64,000 nt of DNA from Elusimicrobiota bacterium (GTDB taxonomy: Bacteria; Elusimicrobiota; UBA8919), in contig JBBAAR010000002.1 in assembly GCA_041658185.1 (NCBI GenBank), positions 143-64,142 on the forward strand, written 5' to 3'. Positions 8,006-44,400 of this stretch are shown here, piece by piece. A program made the translations under genes and the position numbers. How positions within the stretch are numbered: the first letter of the stretch is position 1; every line of letters starts with the position of its first letter. A model generated the notes under the pieces. The model was not told the DNA's origin. It saw nothing but the letters and a program-made list of their open reading frames with translations, and did not search any database.

Positions 8006-8087
8006 TTTTTTAACCCGGCTATCAGTTTAGAATAAATGGTCTGTGCTTTTATGCACACGGGCTATTTCTTGTGGACTGATATTTTTT

Positions 8088-8111
8088 CGCGCGCGTGCGT
8101 GCGTGCATGCG
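8088..8111 (+). repeat. Alternating pyrimidine-purine tract (CG/TG)n, 24 nt, Z-DNA-prone
   Basis: cgcgcgcgtgcgtgcgtgcatgcg, read directly. Confidence 0.8.
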
Positions 8112-8468
8112 TTCGGAGTCCCGACGGAAAAAATGAAAATAATACCCAACTGGTTATTAAATAAAAATTCAGCGATTAAGCGATTGTTGTTATTGCGAGG
8201 GCGAAGCCCGTGGCAATCTTTAGTAAAAATCGTTTACAGGCGGGTTTTACACCTTTTTAGGAGAGTGTTTTTCTTTCCGGTCGGAGTAAAAAAGGAGAGC
8301 GCCAAAAACCAAAACAACAACACTAAAAAACAAAAAAATAAATGTGAGTTTATCCATTATCAATCACCTCCGTTAAAAGCTGCGCCTATGCTCAAGAACA
8401 ATACAAACAAAATCCCACCGGTAATAGCCATTAACCATGAAAATTTATCTGCAAGCGCAATATTGCCG

Positions 8469-11400
8469 ATGATTAGTGTTATTGCGTCCACCTGCGCCAG
8501 ATTAAGAAAAACTTTTGCTAAACCGTCTTTCTGCCGTCTGTTAAATTTCATAAGTGACATTATACCAAAAGCAACAAATTTTGTCAAGGGAAAAATTGGT
8601 TTATGGAAATTAAGAACCGTCCCCGTATTTCTCCCCGTATTTCTTTTAATGTTTATTTGTCTGATAAATCAGACCGCTACAAAGGTTTATGCGGATGATA
8701 TAAAATGGGGAAATTTTCAGGGTCCTGACCCTACTGTTACAGGCAATGGAATGGTTGATGATAATGCCAATACCGACCAGAATAATATGACATTACTTGC
8801 TGCCAGGGGTATCGGTTCCGGTGAACCGTCTATTGCGGTTGGTGTTCGTTTCAGAGCACCTAATAATATGACAATATCAGAGATCGGTCTCTATTTCGGT
8901 GATACAACTATCTCTGCCATGGGTTACAGGGTATATATTACATCAGGTGTTGCAGATGGCTCTTCACCACTCAATTTCTCACTTATAGGGGTTGGGACTG
9001 ATGGTCTGACAACGGGTTGTATCGGTTATTTTAATGACGATGGTACCGGTGCAACCTCAGGTGTATGGAGAGTAACCGGTCCACTTGCCGGTGGGTCCGC
9101 ATGGATTAAAGGCGGCGAGGTCTACTGGATAGTTGTTTCTTCCAGACCGGGCGGTACAGCAGGTGAAGCTTACATACAGGGTTATGTTGCCGAAGGACAG
9201 AATACATATAAATACTGGCAGCAATACGGGTTAAATACAAACAATCTTAAACTTTATGATGACCAGATGATGTGTGCTTACAATATGACCGCTGATAATA
9301 ATGATGCTTATACAAATGCAGCATCTTTAACGCCCTGTATCGCTATAAAATCAGGAGATGGCGGAACTATTTCAAATATGGTTGAGGATACATTAAATAC
9401 TTCAATAGTGGATGATGGTTCAGGAGGATTCAAAAGACAACTGATAAAAGTATCAACTTGTGATTTTAAGGCGGATGCTATCGGGCTTTATCTTTCCAAA
9501 AGTGCTACCGCACCCACGCAACCATTAAAAGCGGTTCTTTATAACAGGCAGGCAGGGACATTTGTAGCAATTGCAACCGCTACTTTTAATGCTGCAGATG
9601 TTCCTGTTACTACTAATATGAACTGGATTGAGTCATATTTTGTGCCATCCGTAACACTTGATGCAAACCAGAATTATGCTATTGTGTTTCATGCACCCGG
9701 TGAAGCAAATGATTATTATGTTCAGTTCATAGGCGGTAATGAACAATATGGCGGGATTACAAATAACCTGTCATTGACTTTTGAAGGCAATACTGATGGT
9801 AAAGGGCAGACCCGTCTGGCTGGCGACCCGTTTTCTGATGCGGGCTGGGCTGATGTTACAACCGGCGAGGCAGGCGGTGATTATGCGTTTTATTTGGTTT
9901 CTGATAAAACAAACCCGAAAGGCGCTATTATTACACCGCCGGAGGGCAGTTATTACAAATCACTTTCTACGATTTCAGGCACTTCAGTAGATGGCGGCGA
10001 ATTAGGCAGATTCGGCATAAAATCATTAGAAATTGCGATTAAAGCGGTAGATTCAAACTGGTGGGATTTTGCAGCGGGCGGCAACGGTCCTGGTGATGGC
10101 GGCTGGGATGAAGGTCTTGCAGAATACACTTCCGTAACACTTCCGCCTTTAACAACAGGGCAGTTTGTATGGAATTATAATTTCAACAATCAGTGGATGA
10201 GCAATATGCAGCATATAGTAAGATGTAAAATAACCGATTTTGCAGATAATGTCCTGACTTTTGACAGAAACCTTATTGTTGACCGCTCTTCGCCTTCTGC
10301 AATTTGCACATTGCCAACAAACAATCAATGGGTAAGCACATATGATATATTACCTACCATTTCAGGAACCGCATGGGATGATTCAATTTACGGCTCGTTT
10401 TCGCCGAATTTTGATGGTATTCAAATACGGTTAGCGCATTTAAACGGCGGGACTTCTTATTACAACGGTGCTTTTGTTGAACCAAACGGAGAGTCAGCAA
10501 CTGTATGGCTTTCTACAGAATCTGCTGGTTCCTGGAGCACATCAATCAGCGAATCAAAACTGAAAGGTGTGTGGGGGAAAAGCAGGTTTGCGATGCCGTG
10601 GAGTGTTGAAGGTTCGTCATATCAGGTAACAGCAAGAGGACAGGATAAAACCGGTAACAGAACAGCCATTGCACTCTATCAGATGACAACTTTTTACTAT
10701 GACCCAAATCCGGGTATTTCTACGGTAACTTATCCCAGTGGACCTTCCTGGGAGAGTATCTCAAGCCCGTATTTCATTGGTGATGCTACCGATACTATTT
10801 CTGCCGAAAATTCAACTAAAAAAGTTTCGCTTGGTACGAAGGTTGAAGTAAAACTGTTGAAAAAAGCAGACGGTACATATTGGCAGGATGATGGCTCATG
10901 GGTCGCTACGCTTCCTGAAGATAGATGGCCATCAACAATAAACCAGGCAGATTCAAGTTATGCGGTTAATAAGGGAACATGGTCATTAAAAGGCCCTGTT
11001 GGTCTTCCAACCGGCAACTATCATATGTTCAGCCGGGTTGTGGATAATGCAGGCAATATTCAAACACAGTTTACGGAAACCGGGGTTTATCGTTCAAGCG
11101 TTTCATTTTCTGTTGATGCTGCTAAACCGCAAACATACATAACTATTCCGAAAAGTGATGCAGAGTCATTAGCAAGAACCGCACCTTTAGCAACTATATC
11201 AGGGACCGCTGAGGATTCGCCTACAGGTAGCCCAGCCAAAGTAGCAGAAGTGCGGTTAGCAATACTTAATCGTTCAATCGGTAATGGCACAACCAGTTTC
11301 TGGTCGCCCGGGAACAGCCAGTGGGTAGAGGGTTCTGTAGCAACTCCTTCAACATATGTTGTCTGCTCTCTTGATACCGCATTTACACCTGCGAAATGGG

Positions 11401-14400
11401 GTTATGTGATGCCGGGCGGTGCGTTAACCAGCGGGCATAAATACGAGGTATTTGCGTGGGCGAAAGACAGTGCGGGAAACTGGCAGGATAATCCTACCGC
11501 CTACCGCGGTCTCAACTATGTTGCTAATTCAACACCTTCTGTGAAATGCTTCTGGTGGGAAGTGGATAAACCGTCAACAACAATAACCTCGTTTTCGCCG
11601 TTTGGTTATCTGCCGTCAATGAGTTCAATCGGAGGGACCTCTGTTGAAAATTACGGAAGCGGTCCTGCGAATACGGTTGCAAAAGTCCAGGTTCGTATTT
11701 CAAAAACAATAAACGACAATACGGCATTGACATACGGCGTATCGGCGACAACAGGGACATTTGAGACAGACGCAGGGTTCACGAGTTGGCTTGACGCCGG
11801 AGCAGTGACCTCGCCCTGGGAGGTTACGGTATTATCAACACAGCCGTTTGACAGCGGCGGTTCTTATATTGTCCGTTCAAGGGCATATGATAACACATAC
11901 AAATTTGATGCTGCCGAAGGCGGGCCCGGTAGTGCGTTCTCCAACACCGAGAACTATTCGCCGGGCGTCTGGTCGGTCAATCGCTCTTCTTTTACTTTTG
12001 ACAATGTTCTGCCATATGAGAATGATATTGTTTTTCCCGCCGCGGGTAATTCACGGCTGAATAACAACCCGATGACATTCAACGGCTACTCAAAAGATGC
12101 GGTTGCTATGGCACAGACCGGCTCCATAGAGTTCCAGTTGATTGAAAACCGGCTTGAAGCGAATGCAAGATACTGGAAATCAGGCACTAACGATTGGTTT
12201 GATTTCGCGAATGCCGACTGGGCTAATGCTGACTGGTGTGCGCCGTCAATAGAGGTATGGGCTACTTCATCAACCTGGACAAAAGCATTTGCTTCCGGTA
12301 AGTTCGCAAATAACGCTATATATTCGTTAAGAACAAAGTCAAAAGACAGAGCGAGTAATTATACAACCCTTTATTCAACAAGAACATATACTTTTGATAC
12401 CACAGCACCGGAGACAGCAGTTACCAATACCAAGCCGCCTACATACATAAATAATACATATGCATCACAAATAGAAGGCACCGCACTGCAGACGGATTAT
12501 CAGTATATTCAGTTAAGGACAAGACGGTATTATGATATGTACACTTGGGAAGGGACTGTTTTTAATGTTGACGTCAACACAAAAACAGTAACCGGATACG
12601 GCGGCAACAACTGGTACTATGTGAATATTTCTACAAAAGACCTTACTGATGGCGCAACTTACGGGATACTCTGCTGGGGAACTGATGTTGCTACTAATAT
12701 TGAATCCACAGCAGCCAAGCCGGACTATGTATTTTATTACGATATAACAAGACCTACACAGACCATCACAAAGCCCGCACAGAACGAAGTTGTAACATCG
12801 CTGCCTGCAATTACCGTTAATGCGGGCGACACTGTGCCTGCTGCAAATCGTGTAGCAAGCGGTATTGTTGAGGTAAAGATAAAAATAGTGGCAACTCAAC
12901 TTTATTCAAACACAACATACTGGAGCGGCACGCTTGTTGGTGGATGGACACCTACTGAGACATGGCTGCCGACTGAAGCGAGTGGTAATAACTGGGTGTA
13001 TCCACTTGCGGGCTATGTAATGCCGTCCTTCACCGATGACAAACTTTACGAAGTAATCGCAAAATGTAAAGATAATTCAGGTAACTGGTCTATTGTGTAT
13101 TCAACAAACGGGTTCAAGCAGGACCAGACATCACCGACGCAGTCAACAATACTCAGACCATCAGCAAACAATATCTTTTTTAACCAACTAACAACACTTT
13201 CCGGACAGTCACAGGATTCCGCCAACACCTCCAATATCACACGAGTAGATATCACAATCCGGGATATGACACTTGGCTCAACTTATTGGCAGGGTTCTAA
13301 TAATACCTGGATACAGACATCAACAGTAACGACAAAGAATTATGCTGCAACACCTGTGACCTGGCAGTATGATGTTTCAGCAGTAAATCCTTTTACAACA
13401 GGGCGTCGGTATGAAATGACTGTAAAGGCTTATGATGCGCCCGGCAACGGCGAGGCAGTGCCGCCTACCCGCTATTTCTATTATGATGTTTCGCAGCCGA
13501 CTACGACCGTAATAACTCCAACGCCGGGAAGTATAGTGGCTTCACTTCCTGAAATTACAGGTCGTGCCGGCGATAACCCATCGGTTCAGGCAGGTATCCA
13601 AAAAGTTGAAGTCCAGATATATGACGGCGCCCAATACTGGAGTCCCTGGACAGGTAGTTGGGGCGGTGTCGGCGTATGGTATTCTTCTTCACCGTCAGAT
13701 GGTAATATTTACGCCGCCGGTATATGGAAAACTACGGCACCGTGGACTTCCGGCAGTAAATACTGGATAAGAAGCAGGGCATATGACGGCTCCGTCAACC
13801 AGAATGAAACAGGCGGCGGACAGTACGAAGACCCGAACTACGAAGCGACATTTACATATGACAATACCCCGCCGTTGATAAAACTTGTTACGCCCGCAGC
13901 AAGCAAAACACGGCTCAGTTCTCTGCCTACTATATCAGGCACCTGTCAGGATGGTATAAGGATAAATACATCAGGTCCTATAGAAATAAACATACAGAAT
14001 ACAGGCGAGGTCGGCGCTCAAGTAACATGGAATGGCACCGGATGGAATGCCGGTTCGGATGATGGTTTATGGCTCGCTACAAATACATTTGTAGGCGGCT
14101 ATTCCGGTGGCGGCGGGCAGGTATCAAGCGGCACCTGGAATTACACATATCAATATGTGCTGAATGCATCAACCCCTTCACCGCCGAGTAGATACCAGTT
14201 AAGAATACAATCAAGAGACGAAGCGGGAACATATTCGGTAATTTATTCAACAAAATTCTGGTATGATAAAGTCAAACCGGTTTCGGAAGTGACAAACCCC
14301 GGCGCAACTTATATTTCTCAATTAGGCACTATTTCCGGCACTTCTTCGGCTGACACAAATCCGGTGATTTCAGGAGTACAGATAAAAATCAAACGCCTCT

Positions 14401-17400
14401 CGGATAATGCTTTATGGGGTGGTAGTGCATGGGATGGTGCCGGATATAACAATGCAAGTTCAGTTGAGGTATATTCATCAAGCGGTATATGGGTATACAA
14501 TCCCGGTACACCCGTAGCACTTACCCCTGGTACGTCATACCAGATATATACATTTGCGACTGACCAGGCGGATAATATAGAAAATGAAAATACGCATCCG
14601 ATATTCTGGTATGATACGACCGCGCCGACAACAAAAATAGAATATCCGCTCAGCAACGGTGAGACAACGGGTCTTCCGACACTGTCCGGGACCGCTTCGG
14701 ACAATCTTTCAGGCGTTTCACAGGTCCGGATAAAAATTCAGGATGATTTTACAACGGATGGCGGGAAATCATGGAATGGTTCTGTTTGGGATACAAATGA
14801 TAACTGGGTTACTGCGGGTCTCGGCTACAATGCATCAATTGGTGTTTCAACTTGGACATACATATATTCCGGCGCTTCGCTCAACGATTGGTATTGGCTC
14901 ACCTCAAAGGGATATGACGGCGCTACTCCTATAAATACTCAAACAAGTTATGCGGTTGGTACATCATCCAACAGGTTTATAGCGGATACTTCATTTACAG
15001 GACCGACGATTATAATGAGACCGAAGTCCGATGATGATTCAATTGCCAGAAAGGACTTGACAACAATTTCAGGAACATCTTATGATACTCGCTCGCATTA
15101 TTTGGTTCAGGCGACGCTTCAGTGGTTGACCTATAACGGGTTGACAAGTGCCACGACTTTTTGGGACGGTTCGCAATGGCTTCAGGGAGCAGTTAACGGC
15201 TCTACAAAAGTTGTCTGTGAAAGAAGCGGTTCAGGAACAGAGATAAACTGGTGGTATGATTGCACATCGGCGATGACCAGCGGGCACAAATACGAGACCC
15301 GCGTTTATGCACGGGACAATGCCGGTAACTGGCTTGCCGAATATGGTGCTTATGTTAAGGGTGGTACGGATACGGTCAAGCAGTTCTGGTATGATAGTTC
15401 AGTCCCGGCATCAACTATTACGGTTCCGTCAGGCGGAATAATATCAATGCTTACAGACCCTGTATTAGCAACAATTTCCGGAACATCCGTTGACAATCCT
15501 TCATCAGGTGCCAGCGGTGTGGGTAAAGTAAAATGGTGTTTATCAAATGACGGCGATACCCAATCGTTCCGCATCTGGTCTGTTTCATCAGGAACCTGGG
15601 AAACAGGACTGTATTATAATGATGGTGAATCAATATCCGGCGCCTGGAGTCCCTGGAAAGGTTTATTTTACAGCACCCAAGCATTTAATAGCGGCTCAAC
15701 ATATCGTTTGAGAGCAAAAGCGATAGATAATGCGGTTGCCTCAATCGGCGAAGCGTCCGGTTCCGGAAATACGGAGGCGGACAAATCATATTATGACAGC
15801 CGATTCAGATGGGATACAGAAGCACCTTTATCAAAGATAGAAAAACCTACCCTGACGGAAGCCCCTCCCGGCGGTTCGGGACGACTAAACTCGCTCGCAA
15901 CCGTTTCAGGAACTGCGGATGACGACACCGGCACCGGCAAAATAAATTCAAACGGCGTAAAACTCAATATAAAAGATGTAACCCAAAACAAGATGATGCA
16001 GTCGGATTATTCATGGATAGCAACTCCGGCTGACGAGAACAACTGGCCATGGGTTGATACGCTCTTTTACGGTGTTTATCCGGGTTCTTGGACTTATAAT
16101 TATTCCGTGGTCGGTTCAACTAATAATGATGTATATCAGATAATAGCGAAAGCGTGGGATGCTTCTAATCCTGCAAATGCCCAGACGGTAAATATTACTT
16201 CCCGGACTTTTGTGTGGGATAAGACAAACCCTGTAACCACGGTTACAAATCCGGCGGCAACATACATATCCGATTTAGGAACGCTTACCGGCGCATCTTC
16301 TTTTGACACAAAACTTTCGCCGGGGATACAAATAAAGGTGAAAAGAATGACTGATGACAAGACATGGCTCAACACCGATTGGGCTTCCGGCGATAACCCG
16401 AACTATGTCACGACTAATGACGGCGGCGGCACTAATCCTGACAACTGGAGTTATAATGCCATAACCAACTCAAATCTTACAGCCGGTACTTCTTATCAAA
16501 TTACAACCTGGGCGGAAGATATAGCAGGAAATGTTGAAGCACAGGCAGTAAAGCGGACATTCTGGTATGACAACCAGAAGGCATCTGCGACAATAGTTTT
16601 TCCTGAGAATGACAAAGAGGCGACCGGTTGGCCTGTATTTTACGGCAGCGGCTGGGATGATTTAGCAGGGACGGATACTATAAAGATAAAGTTACAGCGA
16701 AAGGTGGACGGACTGTTCTGGAATGCCGCTTCCGGTGCTAACGGTTCCTGGGGCGGTGAGATATGGAATAATAGCGAGGTATATGGCTCGTCTTGGGTAT
16801 ATCGGTATGGCACCGGTAATGCTACTCTTAGCGAGTGGTATTATTTAACGGTGAAGGCGGCAGACAAAGCGTCGCCTGCAAACGAGCAAACCGTTTTTGA
16901 AACAAGCCCGGAAGCGGTTAAGTCATCATGTACATTCATAGTTGATGACAAAGCGCCGACCAATCTTAAATTCACAATACCTAATCTTGATAACGAAGGA
17001 ATAGCGAGAAAGGATATTCTGACGTTTTCCGGTTCTTCTTCCGACAACCGCACTCATTCTAAAGTTGAAATGACTTTAAGGGATTTAACATGGGGGACAA
17101 GTTTCTGGTCGGGTTCGCAGTGGCTTCAAGGTGTTGATAACGGCTCAACCAGGGTGGTCTGCGGTAAAACGACCGGCGCGCCGCCTGAAACAATCACATG
17201 GAATTATTCCGTCGGTGCATCAACGATGGTTTCGGGACATAAATATGAGGTTCGCGTGTGGGCAATGGATACTGCCACCAACTGGACGGCGAATTCCGGG
17301 GCATATGTTCAGTATCCCGGTGCAGGTTCAACGGATACCGTGAAACGGTTCTGGTATGAATCAACCGAGCCGGATTCGGTAATACTCAGTCAATCAGAGG

Positions 17401-32400: not shown

Positions 32401-35400
32401 CGTATTTTATCTTTGACACGACACCGCCGGTGAGTGATGTATTAAGTCATATTAATGGCGGGAAATACAATTCAATAAGTACGATAAGTGGTACCTGTAA
32501 TGACGTCCAGCCGAACACACCTTCCGGTGCTGTGTATTCAAATACAATTTCATCGGTTCAAATATCATTACAGAATTTTTCACTTGGGACAACATACTGG
32601 AACGGCAGTAATTGGATTGAAAGCGTTTTCTGGAACTGGTCAAGCAACTTCGTTGCCGGCAACTCAACCTGGACATATACGGGAATAACCAACGGCGATT
32701 TTCGTTCGGGCTATAAATACAAAATAAAGACGCGGAGTTATGACGGCGCGATTCCTAATAATGTGCAGTCGGTGTTAAACGAATACACGATAATTTATGA
32801 CACCCATCCGGCAGATACGGCGCTCACACTTCCTGTTGAGGCGGATAATTACGGAGGCCCTAACAAGACGGTATCAACAATAACGGTTACATCGGTTGAC
32901 TATCCGACGACTGTTGGAACTGTGATATATAACTCATCAACATCAATAGTCGCTGTCCGTGTATCTTCCGGGACAACCGGCGCCGATTACTGGACCGGCA
33001 GTGCCTGGGGCGGCGGCTCAGGTAACTGGCTTTCCACTACATATGACGGCAGTGATAACAAGTGGAAATTATATTATTCGTCTTTACCTGTTTGGGGTAA
33101 TCATTCAACATACAAAGTGGAGACAAAAGCGACCGATAATGCGGGCAATGTAGAAATATCTTATGCCACGTCAACATTCAAATATGACACAGTAAATCCT
33201 ACATCAACGGTATCAATTCCGTATAGTAGTTTCCACAGGTCAATAACAATATCAACCGGGACCTGCGCCGACAGTTGGTCAGATATAGAGAAGGTGTATG
33301 TTCAGATATCAAGCATAACCGGCGGGACTGCATACTGGCTTGATTCAGCGAATAACTGGTCCGGTACTGATAATAATAGCTGGCTTGATGCAACTATCAG
33401 CGGTTCTAACTGGACTATTTATTCGTCATCAATGCCTAATGACGGCAGTTGGGATAGCGGCCCGCAATTCACAATTAAAAGTAAGGCGAAGGATAAATCA
33501 AACAATGAGCAAAGCCCTGTTGCGAGCCGGAGTTTTGTAATTGACTCATCAACGCCGACGGTAGAGATAGTAACGCCTGCAAACGGGGTAACCTCAACGT
33601 TACCGGTGATATCCGGAACGGCGAATGACACGCCGTCAACAGGGCATATTAAGGATGTGAAGATAAGGATATTCCGTCAGACGCTAACCGGCGGACCGAG
33701 CAACAAATACTGGAATTGGGGTGAAAGTATTTTTGATAATACAGCCGCCGAGGATGCATGGTTTATACCGTCGTCAACAAACTCTGCCGGCACCGCGTGG
33801 AGCCATCCGTTTACTAATTGGACAACATCATCAACATACCGTATAGAAGCAAAAGTTGACGACCAGTCCGGCAATTATCAGTTATCATACAGCACGAGGA
33901 CATTCACGTTTGACGATTCATCGCCGGAAAGCAAGGTAATTCTACCCGCGAATAGCAGTGTGCTCTCTCAATTAACAAGTATTTCAGGAACTGCATATGA
34001 TGCCTCGGGACTAACCAATGTGCGGGTAGCGATACAACAATTATCAGACAAGAAATACTGGGTGGACCCGACAGACAGGTTTGCTCAAACCACTACGAAT
34101 TATATTTTAGTGACCCCGGACAACGGATATTTCAACTGGAAATATACAACACTGACAAGCGCTTATTTAACCAACGGGACAAGTTACTGGGTGACAAGCA
34201 TTTCTTCCGACACCTCAAATCCGCAGTTAGTGGAAATACCGTCTGGTGCTCGCGGCTCATATTTTGTGTATGATACGACAGCACCGACATCTAATATATT
34301 ATCGTTGGTAGATACGAAGTCGTATTCGGCGATAACATTATCAAGCGGGAGTTGTTCTGATGTTCAGCCGACACCTTTACCGCCGGGTGCTGCGTATTCA
34401 AACATAATATCGTCGGTGGAAATATCAATACGGAATTTTTCATTAGGGACAACATACTGGAACGGGACAAGTTGGCAGGAAAGTGTTGTATGGTCATCGG
34501 CGACTAATTATGCAGCCGATAAAAGCACGTGGACATATAATAATATGACAAATGCGTTCAAGAGCGGTTGGCAATACAAATTCAAAACGAGGGGCTATGA
34601 CGGTGCGTTGCCGAACAATATCCAGACGGTATTTAATGAATACACGGTTGTATTTGACACCCATCCGCCGACATCAACGGTGGATTATCCGTCATCTGCA
34701 AATCCGAACTATGGACCCAACAGAGCGTTATCGTCAATATCCGGCACCAGCGACGACCTGTTATCAACGCCTAACAATGCGGGAGTGAACAAAGTTCAGG
34801 TGAGAATATCATCTTCAACGCAGTATTGGAACGGAACGACTTGGGACTTTTCATCAAGCAATTGGCTCGCCGCCACAGGAGTTGCAGAGTTCGTATATTC
34901 ATCAACGCCTGTGTGGGAAAACGGCGGGACATACACGGTAGAATCAAAAGCGATAGATAATGTAATACCTTCCGGAAATGTCCAGGCAGCATATTCAACT
35001 ATAAATTTCAAATACGACAACGTTAAGCCGGTATCACAGGTAACGGAGCCGAACAGCCAGTTTGAGAAAGACATAACGACAATATCCGGTAATGCGTCGG
35101 ATAGTTTCTCTACAGTTGAAAATGTTTCTGTGCGGGTTTCCTCATATACATCCGGCGGATATGTAGTCCAGCAGAACTGGACAGTTGCGCAGGCGTCAAC
35201 CAGTTGGACATATCCGTATTCAACATGGGTTAATGGCGTGAAATACAAAGTAGAGTCGCAGGCGAAAGACCGCTCGCAGAACTTACAGACCACACCGAAC
35301 AGTTATGAATTTACTTACGATATATCCGTTCCGACGGTAACAGTTGTTACGCCGAATAACGGTGCGTTAAATCCTTCAGGACTTACATCAATATCCGGGA

Positions 35401-38400
35401 CCGCACTTGATTTCCCGACGGGTACTTCGCCCGATTTAACAACAGCGTTATTAAAAGTTCAGGTCAGGATAAAGCACCAGACGGGACCTTACTGGAATCC
35501 GTCGCAATCAACTTACAACATTGATTATGCGACTGCCGCATGGTATGATGCGAATTATCTATCTCCGGATTGTACTTTCTGGATGGCGACAAAACCATCA
35601 TTCACAAATAATACGTCATACTTTATTGAAGCAATCGCATATGATAAAGCGGGCAATACGCCGATATATGTTTCAACGAGGACAATAAAGATAGATGAGC
35701 AACCGCCGACAAGTTATGTCAACACGCCGGGCAACCAGGTCATCAAAACAATAGTAAATAATCTTATTGAAGGAACATCTTCCGACGGTGAGACAGGCGT
35801 GGCAACCGTGAAGTTTTATCTGAGAAGGAACACCGACGACAAATACTACAAGAGTGATATAGACCCGGACTTCTCCGAGACGGGAGTTACATTTAATACG
35901 TTATCTCCGCCTTTGAATAATTGGACATTTAATATTCAGGTGGCGACATTTACATCCGGCACATCATATTGGGCGTACACTTCCGGACAGGATGACTCCG
36001 GCAATGTGGAATCAACGCCCGGAGCTGGAGCAAAAACCTTTGTGTGGGACATAACCCCGCCGACATCAACCGTGACAAATGCGAATGTATTGACTGGTTA
36101 TGCAAATTCATTAGCGACGCTCTCAGGAAGTGCGGAAGATGTAACGCCGACGACACCCGCAGGTGCTCAGAAATCGGACGGGATAAGCAATGTGCAGATA
36201 CAGGTATCGTCATATACAGGTACTGCGTGGTCTGTGATAACCGACTGGCCAACGGGTTCAACCAGCCAGGGCGTAAAAGCCGGGACACAAATATCCACAT
36301 TTACATTTTCTACATCGGCATCGCACCGTATTAGCGGAACCAAGTATCTGATAAAGACGAGGGCGAATGACAATGCACTGCCTGCCTCAGGCAACGCCGA
36401 AAACGGCGACATCAAAGCCGGCTACACGATTGTATATGATGAACTTCCGCCGTCTACCAGTATTTATATGCCGGTTAATACACAAAATTATGGGCCTTCA
36501 AAAGCACTTGTTACAATTTCCGGTTCTGCGTGGGATAATCCTGAAACAGGAGTTGGTGTTTTCAATACAGATGTTTCATCAGTTCAGGTTCGTATTAATG
36601 ACGGCGGCGGTGATAGCAGCTACTGGAACGGCGCCACCGCTTTTGATGGCGGTGAAAATTCGTGGTTCAATGCGAACTGGTATGTCGGTGCATCTTCTTA
36701 CAGTTATACATCGCCGAATTGGTCTGATGGAAAGCAATACACGGTAAATTCAAGAGGACTTGACCGCGCGGGAAATATTGCGATTGCTATTTCAACAAAT
36801 GTATTCCAGTATGATACACAAAAACCCACATCAACAATTTCTCTGCCATATGCACAATGGCATGATAATTTTTCAGTGAGCACCGGCACGGCGCAGGACC
36901 CTGACACCAGTTATGAATCGGATGTCAACAGCATACAAGTTGCAATCAAAAATCTTGATGTTGCCCCACCGAATAATTTCTGGAACGGGTTAAATAATTT
37001 TAATGCTAATGAGGCATCATCGTGGAGAGTGACAACAAAATCCGGCAGCAGTCCCATCTATAAATGGACTTATCCATCCGGTGATACGATGCCCGACTGG
37101 TTCAGTTATGACGGCGTAAGAATAGAATTCCGCTCACGCGCAATTGATAAATCAAACAACACCGAACTTTTCCGTGCGACAACTTTCTGGGTTGATGTTT
37201 CTTCGCCGACCGTTCTCAACTTGACGCCCGCTCAGGGAACCACAAGAATTTCTTCGCTTTTGACGATTTCAGGAACAGCAGTTGATTCACCGTCAACCGG
37301 AAAAGTGAACACGGTAAAAATCCGCATAAAGAGAGAAACACCTCTGGCATACTGGAATGGCAGTGCATTTAGTATTGATTTAACCGATCCGGAGCAGGCG
37401 TGGTTCACACCATCATTGACGCCCGATTGCACAATCTGGTGGTATGGTTTTGACCCGGCGAAATGGGAGGACGGAAAACTGTTTGAACTTAATTCAAAAT
37501 CAATAGATAAAACGGGGAAATACTCACTGACATTTTCAACAAGCAACTTTACGATTGATTATTCCTCGCCGACAAGTTTTGTCGGAATACCGTCAAACGG
37601 CAGTTTTGTAAAAACATTCTCGCAAATTTCCGGTTCCGCTTCCTCAAATGATATTGCAAATACATATATTTCCGTAAAAAATCTTTACAACAATCTATAC
37701 TGGGATGGTGCTAACGATTTCAATTCCGGACCTGTTGTCTGGCGTCCCAAATCAACACTGAATAACTGGCTTTCTTCCGCAACATGGAATTATACTGTTT
37801 TAACACAGGATAAACTAACTTCGGGCGTTTCTTACTATGTAATGAGTTTCTCGTCGGACACTTCTTCGCCGTCTTTAATTGAAACACCTTCTGCTGCAAG
37901 GGCATCACTGTTTGTGTTTGATTCTACGGAACCATTTACGGCGATTTTAACTCCGGACAGTGCATATCACAACTCGTCGTTAACGGCGATTTCCGGAACT
38001 GCCGAGGATTACCCCGCATTTTCCGGCGCAAGGATTTCAACGCCTTTGACGAATGTTGATATGTACATAGTCAGACACGGCTCTAATTCCTCAACGACAG
38101 AAAAATATTTCAACGAAACAAATTTTGTTGAAAACGGCGGTTTGCCTTACTGGATACCGGTTTCAACCGCCAACCAGCCCGCGTGGAATTATTCTGTAGG
38201 TACGGATTTTTGGACACCGTCGTCATCATATACAGTAAAAGTTAAAGCAACCGACCGTGCATCAAATGTCCAGGGGACACAGTTCTCTTATACAAGCAAA
38301 ACATTCTGGTATGACAATGTGCTTCCGACATCAACGGTGACGCTGCCACCGTCCGGCAATCCGCCTTATAAAACTCTTACGACAATTTCCGGCACCTGCG

Positions 38401-41400
38401 AGGATGAAGTGGCAACGGTGAGGACGATTTCAACGATGACCGTTCTTATTCAGGATGTCACACTCGGCAGCACATATTACAATGTTGTCGGCGTTGCGTG
38501 GGTTTCCGGAAGCGAGTATTGGGGCAATTACGCTTCAACAAACTCTGTTGGAACTCAATGGCAACTATCGGTTCCGGATTCCGCGTGGACAAATACTCAC
38601 CAATACAAAATAATAAGTAAAGCGAAAGACCGTGCAGGCAACTGGGAGACATCGTCAACAGAGAAGACATTCGTTTATGATGTAACCGCTCCGACATCGG
38701 TTGTCGTTGTTCCTGCAAAAAATACCGGTTACAAAACTTTACCAACAATTTCCGGGACAGCATCGGATGCTTACAATTTATCAGTCGTCAAATTGTCAAT
38801 AAAACAGAACGAACCGAACGGATATTATTATTCCACAGGGAGCAGTTCATTCACAGCTGCAACTGAAACATGGTTTGATGCGAAGACGTTAGACGGCTGG
38901 GCAACATGGTCTTCTACAAGGGCATCCGCAAATTCCTGGAACGATATTTTAGAAAGCGGAAAGTGGTATATTTTAAGGTCTTCTGCGACTGATATTGCAA
39001 CCAACTGGCAGACAATTTCATCTTCTAATGTGTTCACTTTTGATAATATTGCACCGCTTACGGCAGTTGTGACACCGGTTCAGTCATCAACTATTTCTGC
39101 CTTGGGGACTATTTCAGGCACGACTTTTGACGGCGCATCAGGACCATCAGCAGTAAAAATCTCTATCAAAGAAATAAATACTAATCGTTATTGGCAGGGC
39201 GGTGCATGGGGCGGCGCCGGCGGTAGTGAAGTGTATCTGGTTGCTTCAACCGGTGTAGTTGTCGGGAGTACCTTGACATGGACATATCCGGGCTTCATCG
39301 GCGGAACGACACCGGGATGGAATCCCGCAGGTGCTGACTATGATATGCATGTCTACGGTATTGATAATGCAGATAATCCTGAGATTGTTTCTTCAACCCG
39401 AACTTTCCATTTTGATGCACAATCACCGACGACACTTGTGACTTACCCGTTAATGAATGGAACATCATTCTTCCATAATTTGCCGACGATTTCGGGCACT
39501 GCATTAGATAACAAAGCCGGTATCGCTTCCGATGCAGTAAAAGTTGCAATTAAGAAATCCGGCGGGGATTGGTATGACGGCGCTGATTTTGTTTCACCAA
39601 CGCCGCAGTGGTGGGTTGCAACAGGCACATATCCATGGACTTATTCAATTGTAGATGCAAATTACGCGGATGCATCAACCTATATTGCATATTCATCCGC
39701 AACTGACAGGGCAACGCCTGCAAATTTACAGACAGCGGTTTCGTCCAGAACATTTACTATTGACCGTTCATCGCCGACCTCAACGGTTATTGCTCCGGCA
39801 AATGATTCAATTATAAACTCACTGACCTGGATTTCCGGAGATGTTACGGATACGGTCAGCGGTCCGAAAAATGATGGGACTGGGACAAAAGTGATGCTCA
39901 CATATCTATCAGGGGCAACAACAAATTACTGGACCGGCTCCGTTTGGACGACTACGGAATCAACGGCATCAACAACCGGAACGGAAACATGGCAGCTCGC
40001 CGCGCCGAATTTTGCGGGACTTTCACAGACGAGGTTCTATGTTAAATCCGTTACCGAGGATAATGTCGGACTGCGCCAAGAAACAAACAACACAAAGTCA
40101 TTCGTATATGATGTTACAGCACCGACATCCGCAGTTACACTTCCTGTCAATAATGAGTATTACGGTCCGTCCAAAACACTTCCGGCAATATCAGGCACAT
40201 CAAACGACCCGTATACCGTGACGGCGGCGTCAATTTCCATACAAAAATCTTATCAGAGCGGTTTACCTTTGCCAAATACGTTCTGGATGTTCTCATCTTC
40301 AAATTGGGGCGAGACGCAGGAATGGAAGATTTGCACGCAGTTAGTCGGCGGCAGTTGGGCAACATGGTATTTCAATGTTCCGGATGCCGCACCCAATTAT
40401 ATCTGGTCTAACGAGGGTGTTTATAAAATTTATGTAAAAGCAAAGGATACGGCCGGTAATGAAAGCAGCGGGTCTGCATTTTATGTTCAAAACATCAAAT
40501 ATGATACAACATTACCGGTTTCAAATATTTCTATTCCAAACAAACCATACTATGGACAGAATCTAACGACTATATCAGGCGGCGCCTCTGATAGCGGCGG
40601 TTCTTCACTTCAAAAAACGCAAATTCGTATAACATGGCCCGCCCAGGCAACCCCGCCGAGTCACGGTGGTGCGGAATATTGGAGTACTTCTCTCAACAAC
40701 TGGACATCTGATTCCGGCAGTTGGAACGATACCACTCCGCCTGCTGCGACATGGAAATATACTCAAATCTCAACTTCAAATTACACGGAAAATCATTATT
40801 TTGTGATTGAAAGCAGGGCGTTGGATAATTCAAATAATACACAAACCAGTATTTCTTCATATACATTTACTTTTGATATAACCCCGCCGGATTCGTTGCT
40901 TACAAAACCGAATCCATCTATAAGTAAATATAACGCCATCCCTACAATTTCAGGTACCACATCTGACAATTACTTAATGAAGACATCCACGCCGGTTGAG
41001 ATAAGTATAAAGGAAATATCAACATATGGTTACTGGGACAATACCGCAGGTAATTATATGGGCTTCTCCCCGAGGGTCTGGAATGTTGTTACTACGACGG
41101 CACCGTTCCAACTTACTATAAAAACAAACGGACCGTTTGGTACGCCATGGTTGAACACCGGAAGTTATGAAGTTGTTTCTAAAAGTTATGATATGGCCGA
41201 AAATGCCGAGGTGTCTTATTCAACTGCTACATTTATATATGACATTTCAGCACCGGATACTCTTGTTGTTATGCCGTCAACCGGAGCGGCTAAAACATAT
41301 CTGGCATTGCCGACCATTTCAGGAACCACCGGGAGTGATGCTGTTTCAGTCAGGATTGCCGTTCAGAACACAACGGACAAAAAATACTGGGACAATTTTG

Positions 41401-44400
41401 GCGACGGTTTATGGGTGGATGGCTATAAAGACAATCAGCATGCTGGTGTAATTGTTGCCAACACATGGAAGTTTTATAATCAGAACGGTTCTTTTAATGC
41501 TGATGATGATTGGCCTGCTTGGACAAGTAATACCTCATACTATGTCTGGGCTTATACGGTTGATGACGCTACCAATCAGGGTCCTGTGCTTTCAACCGCG
41601 ACATTTATGTTTGATAACACGGTTCCGCAGTCGGCAGTTGTGAAGCCGGCCCCATGGCCTTCTTACTACAAACAGGGTTCTATTACAACAATTTCAGGTA
41701 CTGCTTCCGACCAGACCAGCACAGTTGTTTCACCCGTAAAGTTTCAGATATTAGAAAACGACCCTGTCGGGAATACTTCATATTATTATTCCGGCGGCGC
41801 CGGTGGGTTCAATAATGCCGCGGAAACACCGCTGAATGCACCGTTTGTCGGCGCCTCTTCAGGAACCTGGAGTTATGACGATGTATTTCTTGGCGGTGCT
41901 TACCAATCCGGCAGATATTACAATGTCCGCTCATATGCGAAGGACTCAACCAATAACGAGCAGTCAACCAATACAATTACATGGAACAGATTTTTGTATG
42001 ACACCGCCAAGCCGACTTCAACTATTACAAAACCGCTTGCGGATACTGCCTGGCTGAAAACCGATATTGTTACGATTTCAGGCACTGCATCAGATAATGT
42101 AGAATCGCCGAAACATTATTCCGGTATCGCAGATAATACCAAAATAGAACTCTCAATACTTAAAGAGCCGAATTCTTATTGGTACAGATGGACCTCTTCC
42201 GGCACCTGGCAGACAGGTGTGAACTGGTTCAATTCAGCCAATTATGATGGTAGTAATCTATGGTATTATGTATTCCCGCAGCCGGACGGCTCCGATTTTG
42301 ACCCCGGCAAGTATTATCAAATCAAAACCAGAATAACCGACAGAGCCGATAATCTTTATAATACACAGACGGCAAACAGATTCCTGGTTCGCGCGGATGC
42401 CGCATACTTTGTGGTCTCACAGATAAATGTGCCTACTGCAGGCGGCTCATCCGACCTCAAAGTAGAAGTGTTTAATAGTGAAGGCGGTCTCGCGGTTGAC
42501 TATGATAAATGGATTGAGTTTTACACGCCGAACGGGCCCGAGGGTTCTGGACTACTACCGTCGACAACCAAATTCTTCGGCGTTTCGGAAGGCGGCGTGA
42601 AATGGATGTATGCTTCACAGGGCTGGGGTGTAACACTGCGTAAAGCTGCAAACAATACTGCTTTCAATCCGGGTACCAGAACCGTTTATGTCCGAGAAGT
42701 CGGCGCGCCGGGCATCAACAGTCAATCACCGCCGGCACCTACGGCATCACAAACCGGAATAGTCGTTAATCCGCTGCCTTGGACAAAATTGAGAGTGCTT
42801 GTGCCGTCTCAAACTCGTGACCCCGGTAATACTTCAACCAATGGTAGATCCGGAGGCATTGCGACACAGACAGCAGGGAATTCCTTCACAATTATTGCTG
42901 ATGCCTGTGACGACTACTGGAACCTTGTTGATACCGGTACTCCTGTTAATGTTGCTTTTGATGACGCAGACGACCCATATGCTATTGATGGCGAGGGCTT
43001 GTATCAAATCACCGCCGGCTCCGTCGTCGTTTCGGGATTAAAATTCCGTGTTGCCGGTAACAATAAAAACATAATTATCTCAACATATACTAAATCCGAT
43101 ACTTCCTCAAATATAGATGTCAATTATGACTCTGCCAATAAACTTTTAGTTCTTGCTCCCGGTGAGACGGCGCAGCCGGGGTCTTTATTAGGTAAAACCG
43201 GTGCCGTTGTTGCCCAGACCGCAGGTGCTCCATTTGATGTAACTGTAAATGCCTGCGATTTATACTGGAACAAAAACCTTGCTGCGTCTCACATTACTAC
43301 AATGACGACTACTGATGTTTATGATACCGAACCCTCAACACGCGCTTTGACGAACGGTTCTACAACATTTACGCTGACGCTTGTTACTGCCACAACTCAA
43401 TATATTTCCGCACTTGCTACCGGTCTTACTTCAAATACGACTTATGTTTATATCAAACCGAATCTTGCAACACGACTGCAACTGTTGGTTCCCGGCGAAA
43501 CGCTCGCACCCGGTAAACCTGGCGGAAAAAATCAGGTCTATCAAACATTTTCCGCTGGTGTGGATTATGTTGTTACAGTCAACCTTGTTGATAACTGGTA
43601 CAATATCCAGAAGGATACAGATATGCCGTCAGTCCGGGTTTATACACTTTCACCGACTGATGTTGACCAGACATATTCACTTATAAATGCTACAAGGACA
43701 TATACGATTAATTTCACAGCTGCCGGAAACAGGCAAATAGAAATAGATAATCAAACAGGATACCTCAATTATGATGCCAGTGCGTCTACTACGGTTGTGG
43801 TGATACCTGGTGTTGCCGACCGCCTGCGGCTGCTTATGCCGGGCGAGACAGCACAGGGCTATCCGGCAGTTACGGGAGGTAAGATTGGGAGTCCGTCGGA
43901 AAGAACAGCGGGTGTCAATTTTTCAGTAACAGTTCAGGCCTGCGATGTTCGCTGGAATACAACAACTTCCGGAGGCAACCAATCAATAAGGGTTACAGCA
44001 CATTCTTCCGACCAACCCTATACACCTAATATATGGACGGATAGTTTAGCATCTAACGGTGAGAAAATCATTTCCGGTATTTATGTGAGGAAAGCGACAC
44101 CGACTACTTTCTATGTTGAAGATATAGATATTACGGAGCCTGAGATGTCAACTCAGACGGTGTATAATGTTTCCGTCGTGCCAGACCCGACAGCCAACCA
44201 GTTGAAACTTCAACTTCTTGTTCCCGGTGAAACTGCAATGGCCGGCAAGAATACCTCCCCGCTTGGCAAAACAGGAACACCTTCTGAAAGAGTATCCGGT
44301 ACGCCTTTCACGGTAACGGTAAATCTTGTTGATGCTAACTGGAACAAATATAACGACGGTCTCACTGTCGGCGCAACTGTGCAGATAACAACGGATGACC

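Follow-up and report, generated by a model that had tools for sequence, protein, structure and literature searches.

The 64,000-nucleotide stretch of DNA analysed here (the window) contains a single stop-free frame of 18,656 codons, extending from position 8031 as far as the end of the window. The corresponding gene call on the source contig, from an Elusimicrobiota MAG, encodes a protein of 18,879 aa and about 2 MDa. The features along the frame are listed below.

8031..8594, + strand: stop-free in-frame stretch of 188 codons upstream of the signal-like segment (0 stops, vs 12-14 in the other forward frames)
8595..8690, + strand: signal-peptide-like segment, IGLWKLRTVPVFLPVFLLMFICLINQTATKVYA followed by DD (direct reading of the sequence)
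8691..9902, + strand: N-terminal non-repeat region, 404 aa (Pfam DUF4082 at E 0.032, below threshold)
9903..42374, + strand: type-A array of 86 tandem modules, predicted Ig-like, median 125 aa (HMM domain table, alignment, AF2 di-module, Foldseek)
14262..17354, + strand: older super-repeat zone, modules 12-14 duplicated as 17-19 (identities.46.36.55)
30537..39038, + strand: younger super-repeat zone, a 5-module unit and a re-duplicated block (in-register identities)
42375..42785, + strand: junction segment between the arrays, 137 aa, matching neither module HMM
42786..56318, + strand: type-B array of 37 tandem modules of ~120 aa (HMM)
56319..59147, + strand: type-C region, including a clear pair of ~124-aa repeats at 57759-58499 (homology to P0140)
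59148..63755, + strand: eight type-D units with a core of ~137 aa and a period of ~170-275 aa (HMM, alignment)
63756..64000, + strand: first part of the C-terminal tail, cut by the window end with 257 residues beyond (gene call of 18,879 aa)

The gene caller placed the start at ATG 8133. Codon usage across 8031..8594 was intermediate (score -0.14; coding sequence +0.41, intergenic sequence -0.45 to -0.75), and translation of this 188-codon leader is uncertain. No ATG, GTG or TTG lies directly ahead of the signal-like segment; ATT 8595 is preceded by AAGGGA, and the relatives P0037 and P0050 have a short leader ahead of the homologous domain. P0050, which comes from an Endomicrobiales MAG, has an N-terminus homologous to the non-repeat region that follows (E 5.8e-40), and a word-index search returned no homologs of this region beyond P0050.

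The first-pass annotation had described about 90 modules of ~125 aa at 9900-42420. An HMM built iteratively from the protein's own sequence detected 86 back-to-back type-A modules at 9903-42374, each at E 1e-14 to 5e-31, with lengths of 101-148 aa (mean 125.9) and a median that agreed with the earlier estimate. The array is real and makes up most of the stalk of a secreted surface protein. The motif proposed for the modules was borne out at the level of alignment columns. The N-terminal part of the module carries D2 (80/86), P6 (82/86), P13 (76/86) and the I-S-G-T columns (66/86, 68/86, 84/86 and 56/86, respectively), followed by D32 (71/86) and V-x-I-x-I. The aromatic columns comprise Y-W (51/86 and 66/86), two further W (60/86 and 65/86), W84 (79/86) and Y99 (77/86), and the C-terminal part contains D107 (83/86), N111 (74/86), E/Q113 (58/86) and F121 (73/86). 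As literal strings the elements were rarer: ISG[TS] occurred in 49 of the 86 modules, D.AGN in 19 and the full A.D.AGN.[EQ] in 6. Tryptophan accounts for 4.0% of the array, or about 5 residues per module. No two modules are identical, as had been stated, the highest pairwise identity being 78% over a background of 25 ± 4%. The composition of the protein (24% Ser+Thr, 0.4% Cys) is typical of extracellular repeat proteins.

Structure prediction supports an Ig-like beta-sandwich fold for the type-A module, in a tandem extender arrangement, as had been proposed. The AF2 model of two consecutive modules consisted of two beta-sandwiches joined by a 5-residue linker (pLDDT 91.2, pTM 0.84), and the aromatic-rich stretch was modelled as short extra strands between strands C and E; this stretch contributes to a module that is indeed longer than the classical BIg domain (~90-100 aa). 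In a Foldseek search the di-module matched, with probability 1.0, the RTX-adhesin extender tetra-tandems 6xi3 and 6xi1, which were the best matches, as well as RbmA, titin FN3 and P-cadherin. Weak sequence matches of the type-A profile included the SiiE BIg domains (2yn3), MpIBP RII (4p99, 5irb) and protocadherin.

Assignment to a Big_3_5/He_PIG-type family did not hold, neither being present among the 25 families listed at E <= 1 of 37 weakly matched. No part of the frame, scanned as 4,900-aa pieces, passed a Pfam threshold; no module reached any Pfam cutoff, and those with printed scores were far under the curated values. The nearest sequence families were Big_13 (PF19077; 18/86 modules, best E 1.9e-5), Big_7 (PF17957; 10/86), Big_3_3 (PF13750; 2/86), Big_3_2 (PF12245) and Big_3_4 (PF13754), with matches mainly over the C-terminal F-G hairpin. 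Relatives with full-length matches to the type-A profile, such as P0082 with its 12 modules, scored well over threshold for Big_3_4, Big_13, Big_3_2 and Big_3_3.

Mean identity between modules peaked at lags of 5, 10 and 15 (0.296, 0.273 and 0.284, vs ~0.25), a periodicity limited to modules 4-25 and 55-76. Across modules 4-25 (11112-19685) mean identity was 0.31 at lag multiples of 5, vs 0.235. A reported ~1.1 kb duplication was recovered there, 14262-15389 aligning in register with 16215-17354 at the amino acid identities given in the list. In the younger zone, a ~3.3 kb block had been described as re-duplicated, and 30537-33539 does recur at 36045-39038 (.78.39.33.44.40.25.34.25). A ~1.86 kb unit said to occur three times corresponds to a 5-module unit with two clear copies, 31680-33539 and 33540-35315 (.59.52.57.42.37), and a third at 37191-39038 that is only partly recognisable (.44.40.25.34.25). 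The super-repeat is visible at the protein level; nucleotide self-comparison left just three weak matches (67.6-74.8% identity; offsets 1857, 5508 and 8421). The match at offset 8421 (45272-45406 vs 53693-53836) falls inside the type-B array.

Judged by their sequence divergence, the super-repeat copies are old. Block copies differ with dS >= 1 and dN/dS of 0.14-0.27, and their DNA identity does not exceed 75%. Exact repeats anywhere in the ORF reach no more than 32 bp, with just two 31-mers present more than once. Because the copies are this old (37-59% amino acid identity), the array constitutes an evolutionary record and not the assembly hazard that had been suggested. The lag-5 peaks, block identities and dN/dS values support the proposed growth by segmental duplication followed by divergence, in which multi-module blocks, here of 5 modules, were duplicated repeatedly and all copies then held under purifying selection.

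Downstream of the junction segment, to which sequences in the relatives P0062 and P0041 appeared similar by eye, lie repeats that the first-pass annotation, ending at 42.4 kb, had not included: the same protein goes on with the type-B array of 37 modules and then with two additional types of repeat. The type-B consensus is KLQVLVPGETAVPG..GKTG.P..QTAG.PFTVTVNAVD.NWN. Kinship between type-A and type-B modules was not detectable (hhalign probability 3.4%), and type-B modules had no sequence match in Pfam, NCBIfam or PDB. For the type-C region, the complete relative P0140 has a homologous stretch at residues 1121-1762 (E 6e-60). Type-D units carry a D.NGNG.FD loop motif; their AF2 model was all-beta at moderate confidence (pLDDT 64), and its weak Foldseek matches (E >= 7e-3) were to a candidate sialidase and to CBM32/discoidin modules, so that the fold assignment is tentative.

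The type-A module family is widespread and poorly annotated, occurring in 7,657 representative proteins with up to 55 modules each. Among 20 matches looked up, 14 had a phylum-level label, Elusimicrobiota in every case, and the other 6 had none. The order of type-A followed by type-B modules recurred in P0038 and P0062. The complete relative P0140, together with P0125, P0148 and P0098, shared a homologous C-terminal domain, for which FlgD_ig scores were 34.7 bits in P0140 and 30.4 in P0148 (cutoff 27) and just under the cutoff in P0125 (25.8). An ortholog from another metagenome, L003, was 57% identical over the last 891 residues of the window and continued for 257 aa more, agreeing with the window protein in B/C/D order and in distance to the stop codon. 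Those 257 residues comprise an FN3-like region and a C-terminal domain resembling FlgD_ig and the T9SS type-A domain, with scores under the curated cutoffs (FlgD_ig 20.7 vs 27; TIGR04183 17.8 vs 23). The gene downstream of the L003 giant encodes a PorV/PorQ-family protein with TPR repeats (NF033709, 132.7 bits, cutoff 90), and another gene there encodes a TPR-containing FliG_M/FliG_C-like protein (PF01706, 87.9 bits).

Very large as it is, the protein can be recognised as a giant bacterial fibre or adhesin and is no new kind of system. We consider it likely that an Elusimicrobiota bacterium exports it to the cell surface as such a fibre or adhesin, with an extended stalk made up mainly of the 86 modules. 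The N-terminal signal-like segment would direct Sec export, after which each type-A module would fold into a nine-stranded Ig-like beta-sandwich connected to its neighbour by the short conserved linker F-x-Y-D-x-x-x-P. The near-invariant acidic or amide residues D2, D32, D107, N111 and E/Q113 may occupy the domain junctions and, by analogy with cadherins, SiiE and RTX-adhesin extenders, possibly bind Ca2+. The type-A array would then form a stiff rod with a length of very roughly 0.35-0.45 μm, extended by the type-B, C and D repeats to a stalk that is best read as roughly half a micron. A C-terminal T9SS-type (FlgD_ig-like) sorting domain, predicted by orthology, would retain the protein at the outer membrane, probably together with the PorV/PorQ-family barrel of a neighbouring gene; as the window includes neither the final 257 residues of the protein nor the genes downstream, this anchoring is read from the one 57%-identical ortholog. 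The N-terminal non-repeat domain, far from the cell, is probably the distal tip and a likely site of binding.

Were the protein instead released or loosely attached, it would be a scaffold of the matrix, sheath or S-layer-like type, the Ig-like modules assembling into a mesh or coat outside the cell. Among the fold matches is RbmA, a biofilm scaffold, Pfam scans identified no adhesive, ligand-binding or enzymatic domain (the N-terminal DUF4082 signal being sub-threshold), and many relatives have no recognisable C-terminal domain, though most of these are truncated by contig ends. However, the ortholog and complete relatives share a conserved C-terminal domain of the sorting type, and one chain of ~19,000 aa made of non-identical modules fits reach better than a lattice, leaving the scaffold unlikely.

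Slightly less probable again is a SprB-like mobile adhesin, delivered by a T9SS-like route and moved or put under tension by a motor, for gliding or for active contact between cells as in epibiosis or predation. SprB, too, is a giant protein built of repeats, and its gene adjoins a PorP-like barrel gene. The ortholog resembles T9SS cargo in its signal peptide, very long repeat region, ~100-aa C-terminal beta-sandwich and adjacent PorV/PorQ-family gene; the FliG-like gene is likewise directly downstream of the giant gene. Unlike such cargo, its C-terminal domain scores below cutoff, no SprB-repeat match was found in the Pfam scans of the frame, and the sequences examined contained neither T9SS core genes nor genes for a GldL/M-like motor. 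Moreover, both the C-terminal domain and the gene context are taken from the ortholog and not from the protein's own contig, FliG-like domains occur in other settings too, and PorV/PorQ-family barrels alone do not prove a T9SS. To our knowledge, T9SS is established in a group that excludes the phylum Elusimicrobiota, and none of the papers retrieved in a literature search linked the two.

An RTX-type adhesin (LapA/MpIBP/SiiE-like), exported C-terminus first by a T1SS and retained by an N-terminal plug with BIg extenders, was the context implied by the first-pass annotation and is now very improbable. The overall logic is shared: extenders of MpIBP (Marinomonas primoryensis), of the large Marinobacter and Aeromonas adhesins (4p99, 6xi3, 6xi1) and of SiiE (2yn3) form stalks of dozens to about 120 tandem Ig-like domains, joined by short linkers, that hold a binding region away from the cell, and type-A modules have the conserved D-x-(A/S)-x-N hairpin and Asp residues in addition to the structural and weak profile matches above. 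In contrast to those extenders, which are ~90-104 aa long and near-identical, type-A modules are ~125 aa, predicted to be nine-stranded with a Trp-rich C'-D-E region, and highly diverged (25% identity). RTX nonapeptides were absent, with one chance GGxGxD in 18,656 residues; the N-terminus has a hydrophobic signal-like segment; the genes upstream, for UvrD, GatC, GatA, a GT39 glycosyltransferase and NifU, include none for an ABC, MFP or TolC component; and the L003 giant ends in the FlgD_ig/T9SS-like domain and is followed by PorV/Q-like and FliG-like genes, not by T1SS genes. The RTX/T1SS reading is thus largely refuted.

A reading of the array as an artefact of assembly, or as a pseudogene in decay, with its repeats collapsed or expanded, is refuted for practical purposes: the source is a short-read metagenome assembly (a k141 contig) and the relative P0035 has 100%-identical 4-module copies that are possibly artefactual, but the frame is free of stops over 56 kb, exact repeats are minimal, the copies diverged under purifying selection, and an independent ortholog and hundreds of relatives exist.

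A surface fibre of this kind differs from described Omnitrophota giants, which carry HEAT, TPR or enzymatic domains (Archaeovorins) or dockerin and thrombospondin repeats, none of which is present here. The 18,879-aa protein is one of the Elusimicrobiota giants; proteins of >10,000 aa have been reported to be frequent in this phylum, where they were left uncharacterised, and a role in attachment has been proposed for those of at least 10,000 aa (West-Roberts et al. 2023, 10.1101/2023.11.21.568195; PMC11573180).

In a six-frame scan, the giant protein is encoded by a single frame of 18,656 codons, open from 8031 up to the final base of the window. An exact match to the upstream GatA protein puts the beginning of the window at position 157 of the source contig (ENA ERZ27247322:k141_299182; 182,877 bp). 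The gene call on this contig places the start at window position 8133 (ATG) and the 3′ end about 770 nt past the window end, and its 18,879-aa product has no Pfam families on record. Four successive kinds of repeat, termed types A to D, were delimited along the frame, type A being the array under study.

Features of the giant protein, in order
8595-8690, + strand: signal-peptide-like hydrophobic segment with a VYA/DD site, read from the sequence and the leaders of relatives
After the signal-like segment: N-terminal non-repeat region of 404 aa, with a DUF4082 signal below threshold
9903-42374: type-A array of 86 contiguous modules (HMM)
Between the type-A and type-B arrays: junction of 137 aa
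42786-56318: type-B array of 37 tandem modules of ~120 aa (HMM)
Between the type-B array and the type-D units: type-C region
59148-63755: eight type-D units (HMM)

With a sorting domain inferred by orthology, the locus makes up a nearly complete, self-consistent giant protein consisting of the signal-like segment, a tip domain, repeat types A, B, C and D and the sorting domain. Word-index searches returned no homologue for either the N-terminal domain or the C-terminal 900 aa, and no relative was found when GTDB species genomes were queried with the N-terminal protein. The 188 codons upstream of the signal-like segment (8031-8594) contained no in-frame stop, against 12-14 stops in the other two forward frames, and their codon usage was between coding and intergenic. 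There was no ATG, GTG or TTG just before the hydrophobic segment, the ATT at 8595 is preceded by AAGGGA, and the leaders of relatives are short. A real N-terminal extension, a non-canonical start and a constrained leader are all possible explanations of this stretch.

As seeds for the type-A HMM we took the sequence lying between ISG[TS] motifs that recur at regular spacing, and the model was then iterated on the giant protein itself. Each of the 86 modules was matched at E 1e-14 to 5e-31, nearly all over the full model, with a median period of 125 aa (range 101-148). The first-pass annotation had placed about 90 modules at 9900-42420, which was essentially right, and its module motif, running from D-x-[TS]-x-P to A-x-D-x-A-G-N-x-[EQ], is the correct column consensus of the type-A alignment. 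Conservation among the 86 modules was highest at G28 (84), D107 (83), P6 (82), D2 (80), W84 (79) and Y99 (77), followed by N111 (74), D32 (71) and E/Q113 (58). Taken literally, D.AGN was present in just 19 modules and the complete A.D.AGN.[EQ] in 6. Tryptophan made up 4.0% of the array and serine plus threonine 24%.

AlphaFold2 was run on modules 76-77 with an alignment composed of the 85 consecutive di-modules of the giant protein. The Ig-like fold claimed from sequence alone was borne out by the model, which consisted of two all-beta sandwiches with nine strands per module and no long helices (pLDDT 91.2, pTM 0.84). The strands followed the order A, A′, B (T-I-S-G-T), C (V-x-I-x-I), three short ones spanning Y-W-x-G...W...W, E (W-x-Y), F (Y-x-V...A-x-D) and G (T-F-x-Y-D). 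The aromatic-rich segment that had been described as an insert is therefore predicted to be an enlarged C′-D-E region of an Ig-like sandwich. Modules were joined by a five-residue linker (D-x-x-x-P), and this short conserved linker, together with the pTM of 0.84, suggests a defined interdomain geometry in the model.

Comparison of the model with the PDB by Foldseek gave 275 matches at E <= 1e-3, and the returned structures were exclusively tandem Ig-like, FN3 and cadherin domains. The best (E 3e-6) was 6xi3, a tetra-tandem from the extender of a large RTX adhesin, ahead of RbmA, titin FN3, 6xi1 and P-cadherin, all five with a probability of 1.0; TM-scores were low (0.25-0.48) because the query comprised two domains. 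The sequence profile of the 86 modules matched solved structures weakly and over the F-G hairpin only, with the SiiE BIg structure 2yn3 at E 0.01 and protocadherin-15, MpIBP RII and others at E > 0.2 only. Judged by the predicted model, the type-A module is Ig-like (E-set) on both counts, as a confident all-beta sandwich and by its likeness to solved Ig-like, FN3 and cadherin domains.

Assignment to a sequence family was less direct. Nothing scored above threshold when the 18,656 residues were scanned against Pfam in 4,900-aa pieces (the sole signal was Big_3_3, 17.6 bits against a cutoff of 27), and NCBIfam gave no relevant match. Scanned module by module at E <= 1, Big_13 was matched by 18 of the 86 modules (best 1.9e-5), Big_7 by 10, Glucodextran_B by 3 and Big_3_3 by 2; no type-A module reached the gathering threshold of Big_13, Big_7 or Big_3_3, the Big_13 scores being 14.7-15.7 bits against 27 for the modules with printed scores. 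The Big_3_5 (PF16640) or He_PIG (PF05345) type proposed in the first-pass annotation was not supported, as neither family was among the 25 listed of the 37 matched at E <= 1 or in the large-piece scans, and Big_9 and Cadherin were likewise absent from those 25. A relative from the protein search, P0082, aligned with the type-A profile along 12 complete modules (779 bits) and itself scored 159 bits with Big_3_4, 155 with Big_13, 108 with Big_3_2 and 83 with Big_3_3, while word-index homologues carried PF19077, PF13750, PF12245 and PF17957. Through such intermediate sequences, the homology of type A to the Big_3_x/Big_13 group is real.

At E <= 1e-3 the type-A profile retrieved 7,657 representative proteins, of which 1,107 reached E <= 1e-30; many had 20-55 full-length modules and were cut off by contig ends. 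Among 20 hits that were looked up, all 14 with a phylum-level label came from Elusimicrobiota/Endomicrobiia MAGs, and the other six were unnamed or labelled only 'bacterium'. NCBI names were inconsistent ('Ig-like domain repeat', 'RHS repeat domain-containing', 'carboxypeptidase regulatory-like', hypothetical), as seen among relatives P0035-P0045, P0050, P0062 and P0140. Type A thus represents an abundant Ig-like module family that is not captured by Pfam or NCBIfam at threshold, and a dedicated profile would improve the annotation of thousands of metagenomic proteins. One Endomicrobiales MAG is the source of both P0050 and P0062, relatives that resemble two pieces, on separate contigs, of a single giant ortholog. 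The genomic context of a small relative, P0002, consisted just of more large Ig-repeat genes.

The history of the array was examined by comparing modules with one another. Identity averaged 25 +/- 4% with a maximum of 78%, and its dependence on lag peaked at 5, 10 and 15 only. The lag-5 signal was limited to modules 4-25 (0.31 vs 0.235) and 55-76 (0.36 vs 0.257) and was absent from modules 26-54. The super-repeat claimed in the first-pass annotation was largely recovered at the protein level. The five-module unit at 31680-33539 aligned in register with 33540-35315 (identities.59,.52,.57,.42 and.37), as did the block at 30537-33539 with 36045-39038 (.78,.39,.33,.44,.40,.25,.34 and.25) and that at 14262-15389 with 16215-17354 (.46,.36 and.55). 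The proposed third copy of the unit, at 37191-39038, was recognisable in its first two modules and not in the remaining three (.44,.40,.25,.34 and.25).

Only three DNA self-matches were detected, all weak (67.6-74.8% identity; offsets 1857, 5508 and 8421), the third lying inside the type-B array. The longest exact repeat over the whole ORF was 32 bp and only two 31-mers recurred. Duplicated module pairs had dS >= 1 and dN/dS of 0.14-0.27. With the weak DNA self-matches, these values indicate ancient duplications whose copies purifying selection has maintained. The assembly hazard attributed to these duplications does not hold here, given their age, exact repeats of at most 32 bp and DNA copies only 67.6-74.8% identical. 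The type-A array cleanly records how it grew, through the duplication of blocks under purifying selection. The size of the duplicated block varies by lineage, being 5 modules here, 10 in P0035 (including copies that are 100% identical) and 11 in P0038; P0045 showed a faint 3-4-module signal.

Modules 55 (30537-30923) and 70 (36045-36434) were 78% identical in protein and 75% in DNA and hold the longest exact repeat of the ORF, the 32 bp at 30669 and 36177. The modules flanking them within the same duplicated block were only 33-39% identical. This contrast points to gene conversion acting in patches or to constraint that is stronger locally.

The type-B array, which the first-pass annotation had missed, has the consensus KLQVLVPGETAVPG..GKTG..QTAG.PFTVTVNAVD.NWN and gave no match to the PDB (by sequence), Pfam or NCBIfam. 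That type B is a diverged form of type A was rejected (hhalign probability 3.4%). The order A then B recurs in P0038 (43 A, 13 B) and P0062 (20 A, 33 B), and P0140, a complete relative, has both types with overlapping ranges (11 A, 5 B) and a type-C region as well (E 6e-60). Tail repeats were compared by sliding-window phmmer, a BLASTP self-comparison being uninformative. In the type-D units a pair of Asp residues is invariant and a D.NGNG.FD loop motif looks like a calcium-binding loop; a word-index search found no type-D homologues. A type-D unit was modelled by AlphaFold2 as an all-beta domain, with confidence no better than moderate (pLDDT 64). Structurally it matched, weakly, a candidate sialidase and CBM32/discoidin modules (E >= 7e-3), only a hint of what type D may resemble.

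The C-terminus was approached through an orthologous metagenome locus, L003 (JGI Ga0208373_1000532), found by a metagenome scan. Its giant ORF was 57% identical to the final 891 window residues of the giant protein and showed a matching order, with type-B modules (at least 11) followed by 4 type-C repeats and 8 type-D units. It ran 257 residues beyond the point at which the window ends, the exact number missing from the window protein. This tail contained a weak FN3-like region and then a C-terminal domain starting NYPNPFD, which resembles FlgD_ig and T9SS type-A sorting domains at scores below the cutoffs (FlgD_ig 20.7 against 27, TIGR04183 17.8 against 23) and has local matches to C-terminal domains within the PorU, PorZ and T9SS-dependent M6-like models. 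The C-terminal domain of P0140 passed the FlgD_ig cutoff (34.7 against 27), and three further relatives (P0125, P0148 and P0098) end in a domain homologous to it.

Genes downstream of the giant ORF in L003, in order
1: PorV/PorQ-family outer-membrane barrel fused to TPR repeats (NF033709, 132.7 bits; cutoff 90)
2: FliG_M/FliG_C-like protein with TPR repeats (PF01706, 87.9 bits)
3 and 4: a 1,206-aa protein without a match; an FN3/Ig protein

The first two occupy L003 12913-16766 and adjoin the giant gene with its T9SS-like C-terminal domain, a PorV/Q-like and FliG-like context that is unexpected for Elusimicrobiota. In the sequence covered, the window and the L003 locus, the PorV/PorQ-family gene next to the ortholog was the sole candidate component of the T9SS machinery (SprA/Sov, PorK-N, PorU, PorV), and a literature search found nothing relevant on T9SS in Elusimicrobiota.

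The best-supported reading of the giant protein is that of a Sec-exported, outer-membrane-associated fibre or adhesin. Its 86 type-A modules would make up two thirds of a stalk, on the distal side, with the N-terminal domain presented at the tip and the C-terminal sorting domain at the cell-proximal end. At ~4-5 nm per Ig-like domain, as in RTX-adhesin extenders, the type-A array would span, very roughly, 0.35-0.45 µm and the whole protein more than half a micron. The nearly invariant Asp/Asn positions might bind Ca2+ at the module junctions. We infer Ca2+ binding, rigidity, orientation and adhesion for the giant fibre.

Two kinds of known giant protein were weighed against this reading. Among Omnitrophota giants, the Archaeovorin class has HEAT, TPR and enzymatic domains and the Dockerin-type class dockerin together with thrombospondin type-3 repeats (10.1101/2023.11.21.568195); Pfam found none of these in the 18,656 residues of the giant protein. 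RTX adhesins come closer, since the giant protein would work like an RTX-adhesin extender, yet it lies outside that family on all three features tested. RTX repeats were represented by one isolated GGxGxD in 18,656 residues, and the C-terminal tail of L003 had neither RTX repeats nor an RTX Pfam match (last 420 aa read, last 688 aa scanned). No T1SS genes (ABC transporter, MFP, TolC) were found upstream of the giant gene or downstream of the L003 ortholog. Finally, RTX/T1SS adhesins have no Sec signal and carry an N-terminal retention module, whereas the giant protein has the signal-like segment at 8595-8690.

A more far-reaching proposal, which we consider improbable, is that Elusimicrobiota possess T9SS-like sorting and anchoring of megadalton Ig-like fibres, dependent on the C-terminal domain and PorV/PorQ, with the FliG_M/C-like TPR protein coupling them to a motor. 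If true, this would amount to a SprB-like adhesin system, mobile or under tension, that serves in gliding or in actively attaching to other cells, and the 125-aa Trp-rich module would be a dedicated stalk domain family of the T9SS-like pathway. To our knowledge, no SprB-like T9SS/motor adhesin system is known in Elusimicrobiota.

Giant tandem-Ig stalk and surface proteins are a well-known kind, and the giant Elusimicrobiota protein changes no concept. What is distinctive is a 125-aa Trp-rich Ig-like family missed by curated libraries, an array unusual in its size and good preservation, and, in the ortholog L003, a C-terminal domain of T9SS-like character in a protein whose gene has PorV/Q-like and FliG-like neighbours. 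Very large proteins have been reported as frequent in Elusimicrobiota, which are reported to be unusually rich in huge proteins, none of them known to have been dissected (10.1101/2023.11.21.568195; PMC11573180).

The genes upstream of the giant gene are ordinary chromosomal genes, encoding PilZ, UvrD/PcrA, GatC, GatA, a GT39/PMT_2-TPR glycosyltransferase, NifU and a small unknown ORF. The UvrD, GatA and GT39 proteins are also present in a MAG that NCBI labels as Elusimicrobiota bacterium (MFA5778741.1, MFA5778743.1 and MFA5778744.1). The GT39/PMT_2-family (GT-C type) glycosyltransferase, with C-terminal TPR repeats (4405-6591), lies two genes upstream of the giant gene, at a distance of ~1.5-2 kb. 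It is a candidate enzyme for O-glycosylation of the fibre, in which Ser+Thr account for 24% of the repeat arrays, but its proximity may be coincidental. ORFs of 159-166 aa nested within the giant gene, at 34796-35293 on the minus strand and at 61099-61599 and 61792-62271 in other frames of the plus strand, are most likely spurious.
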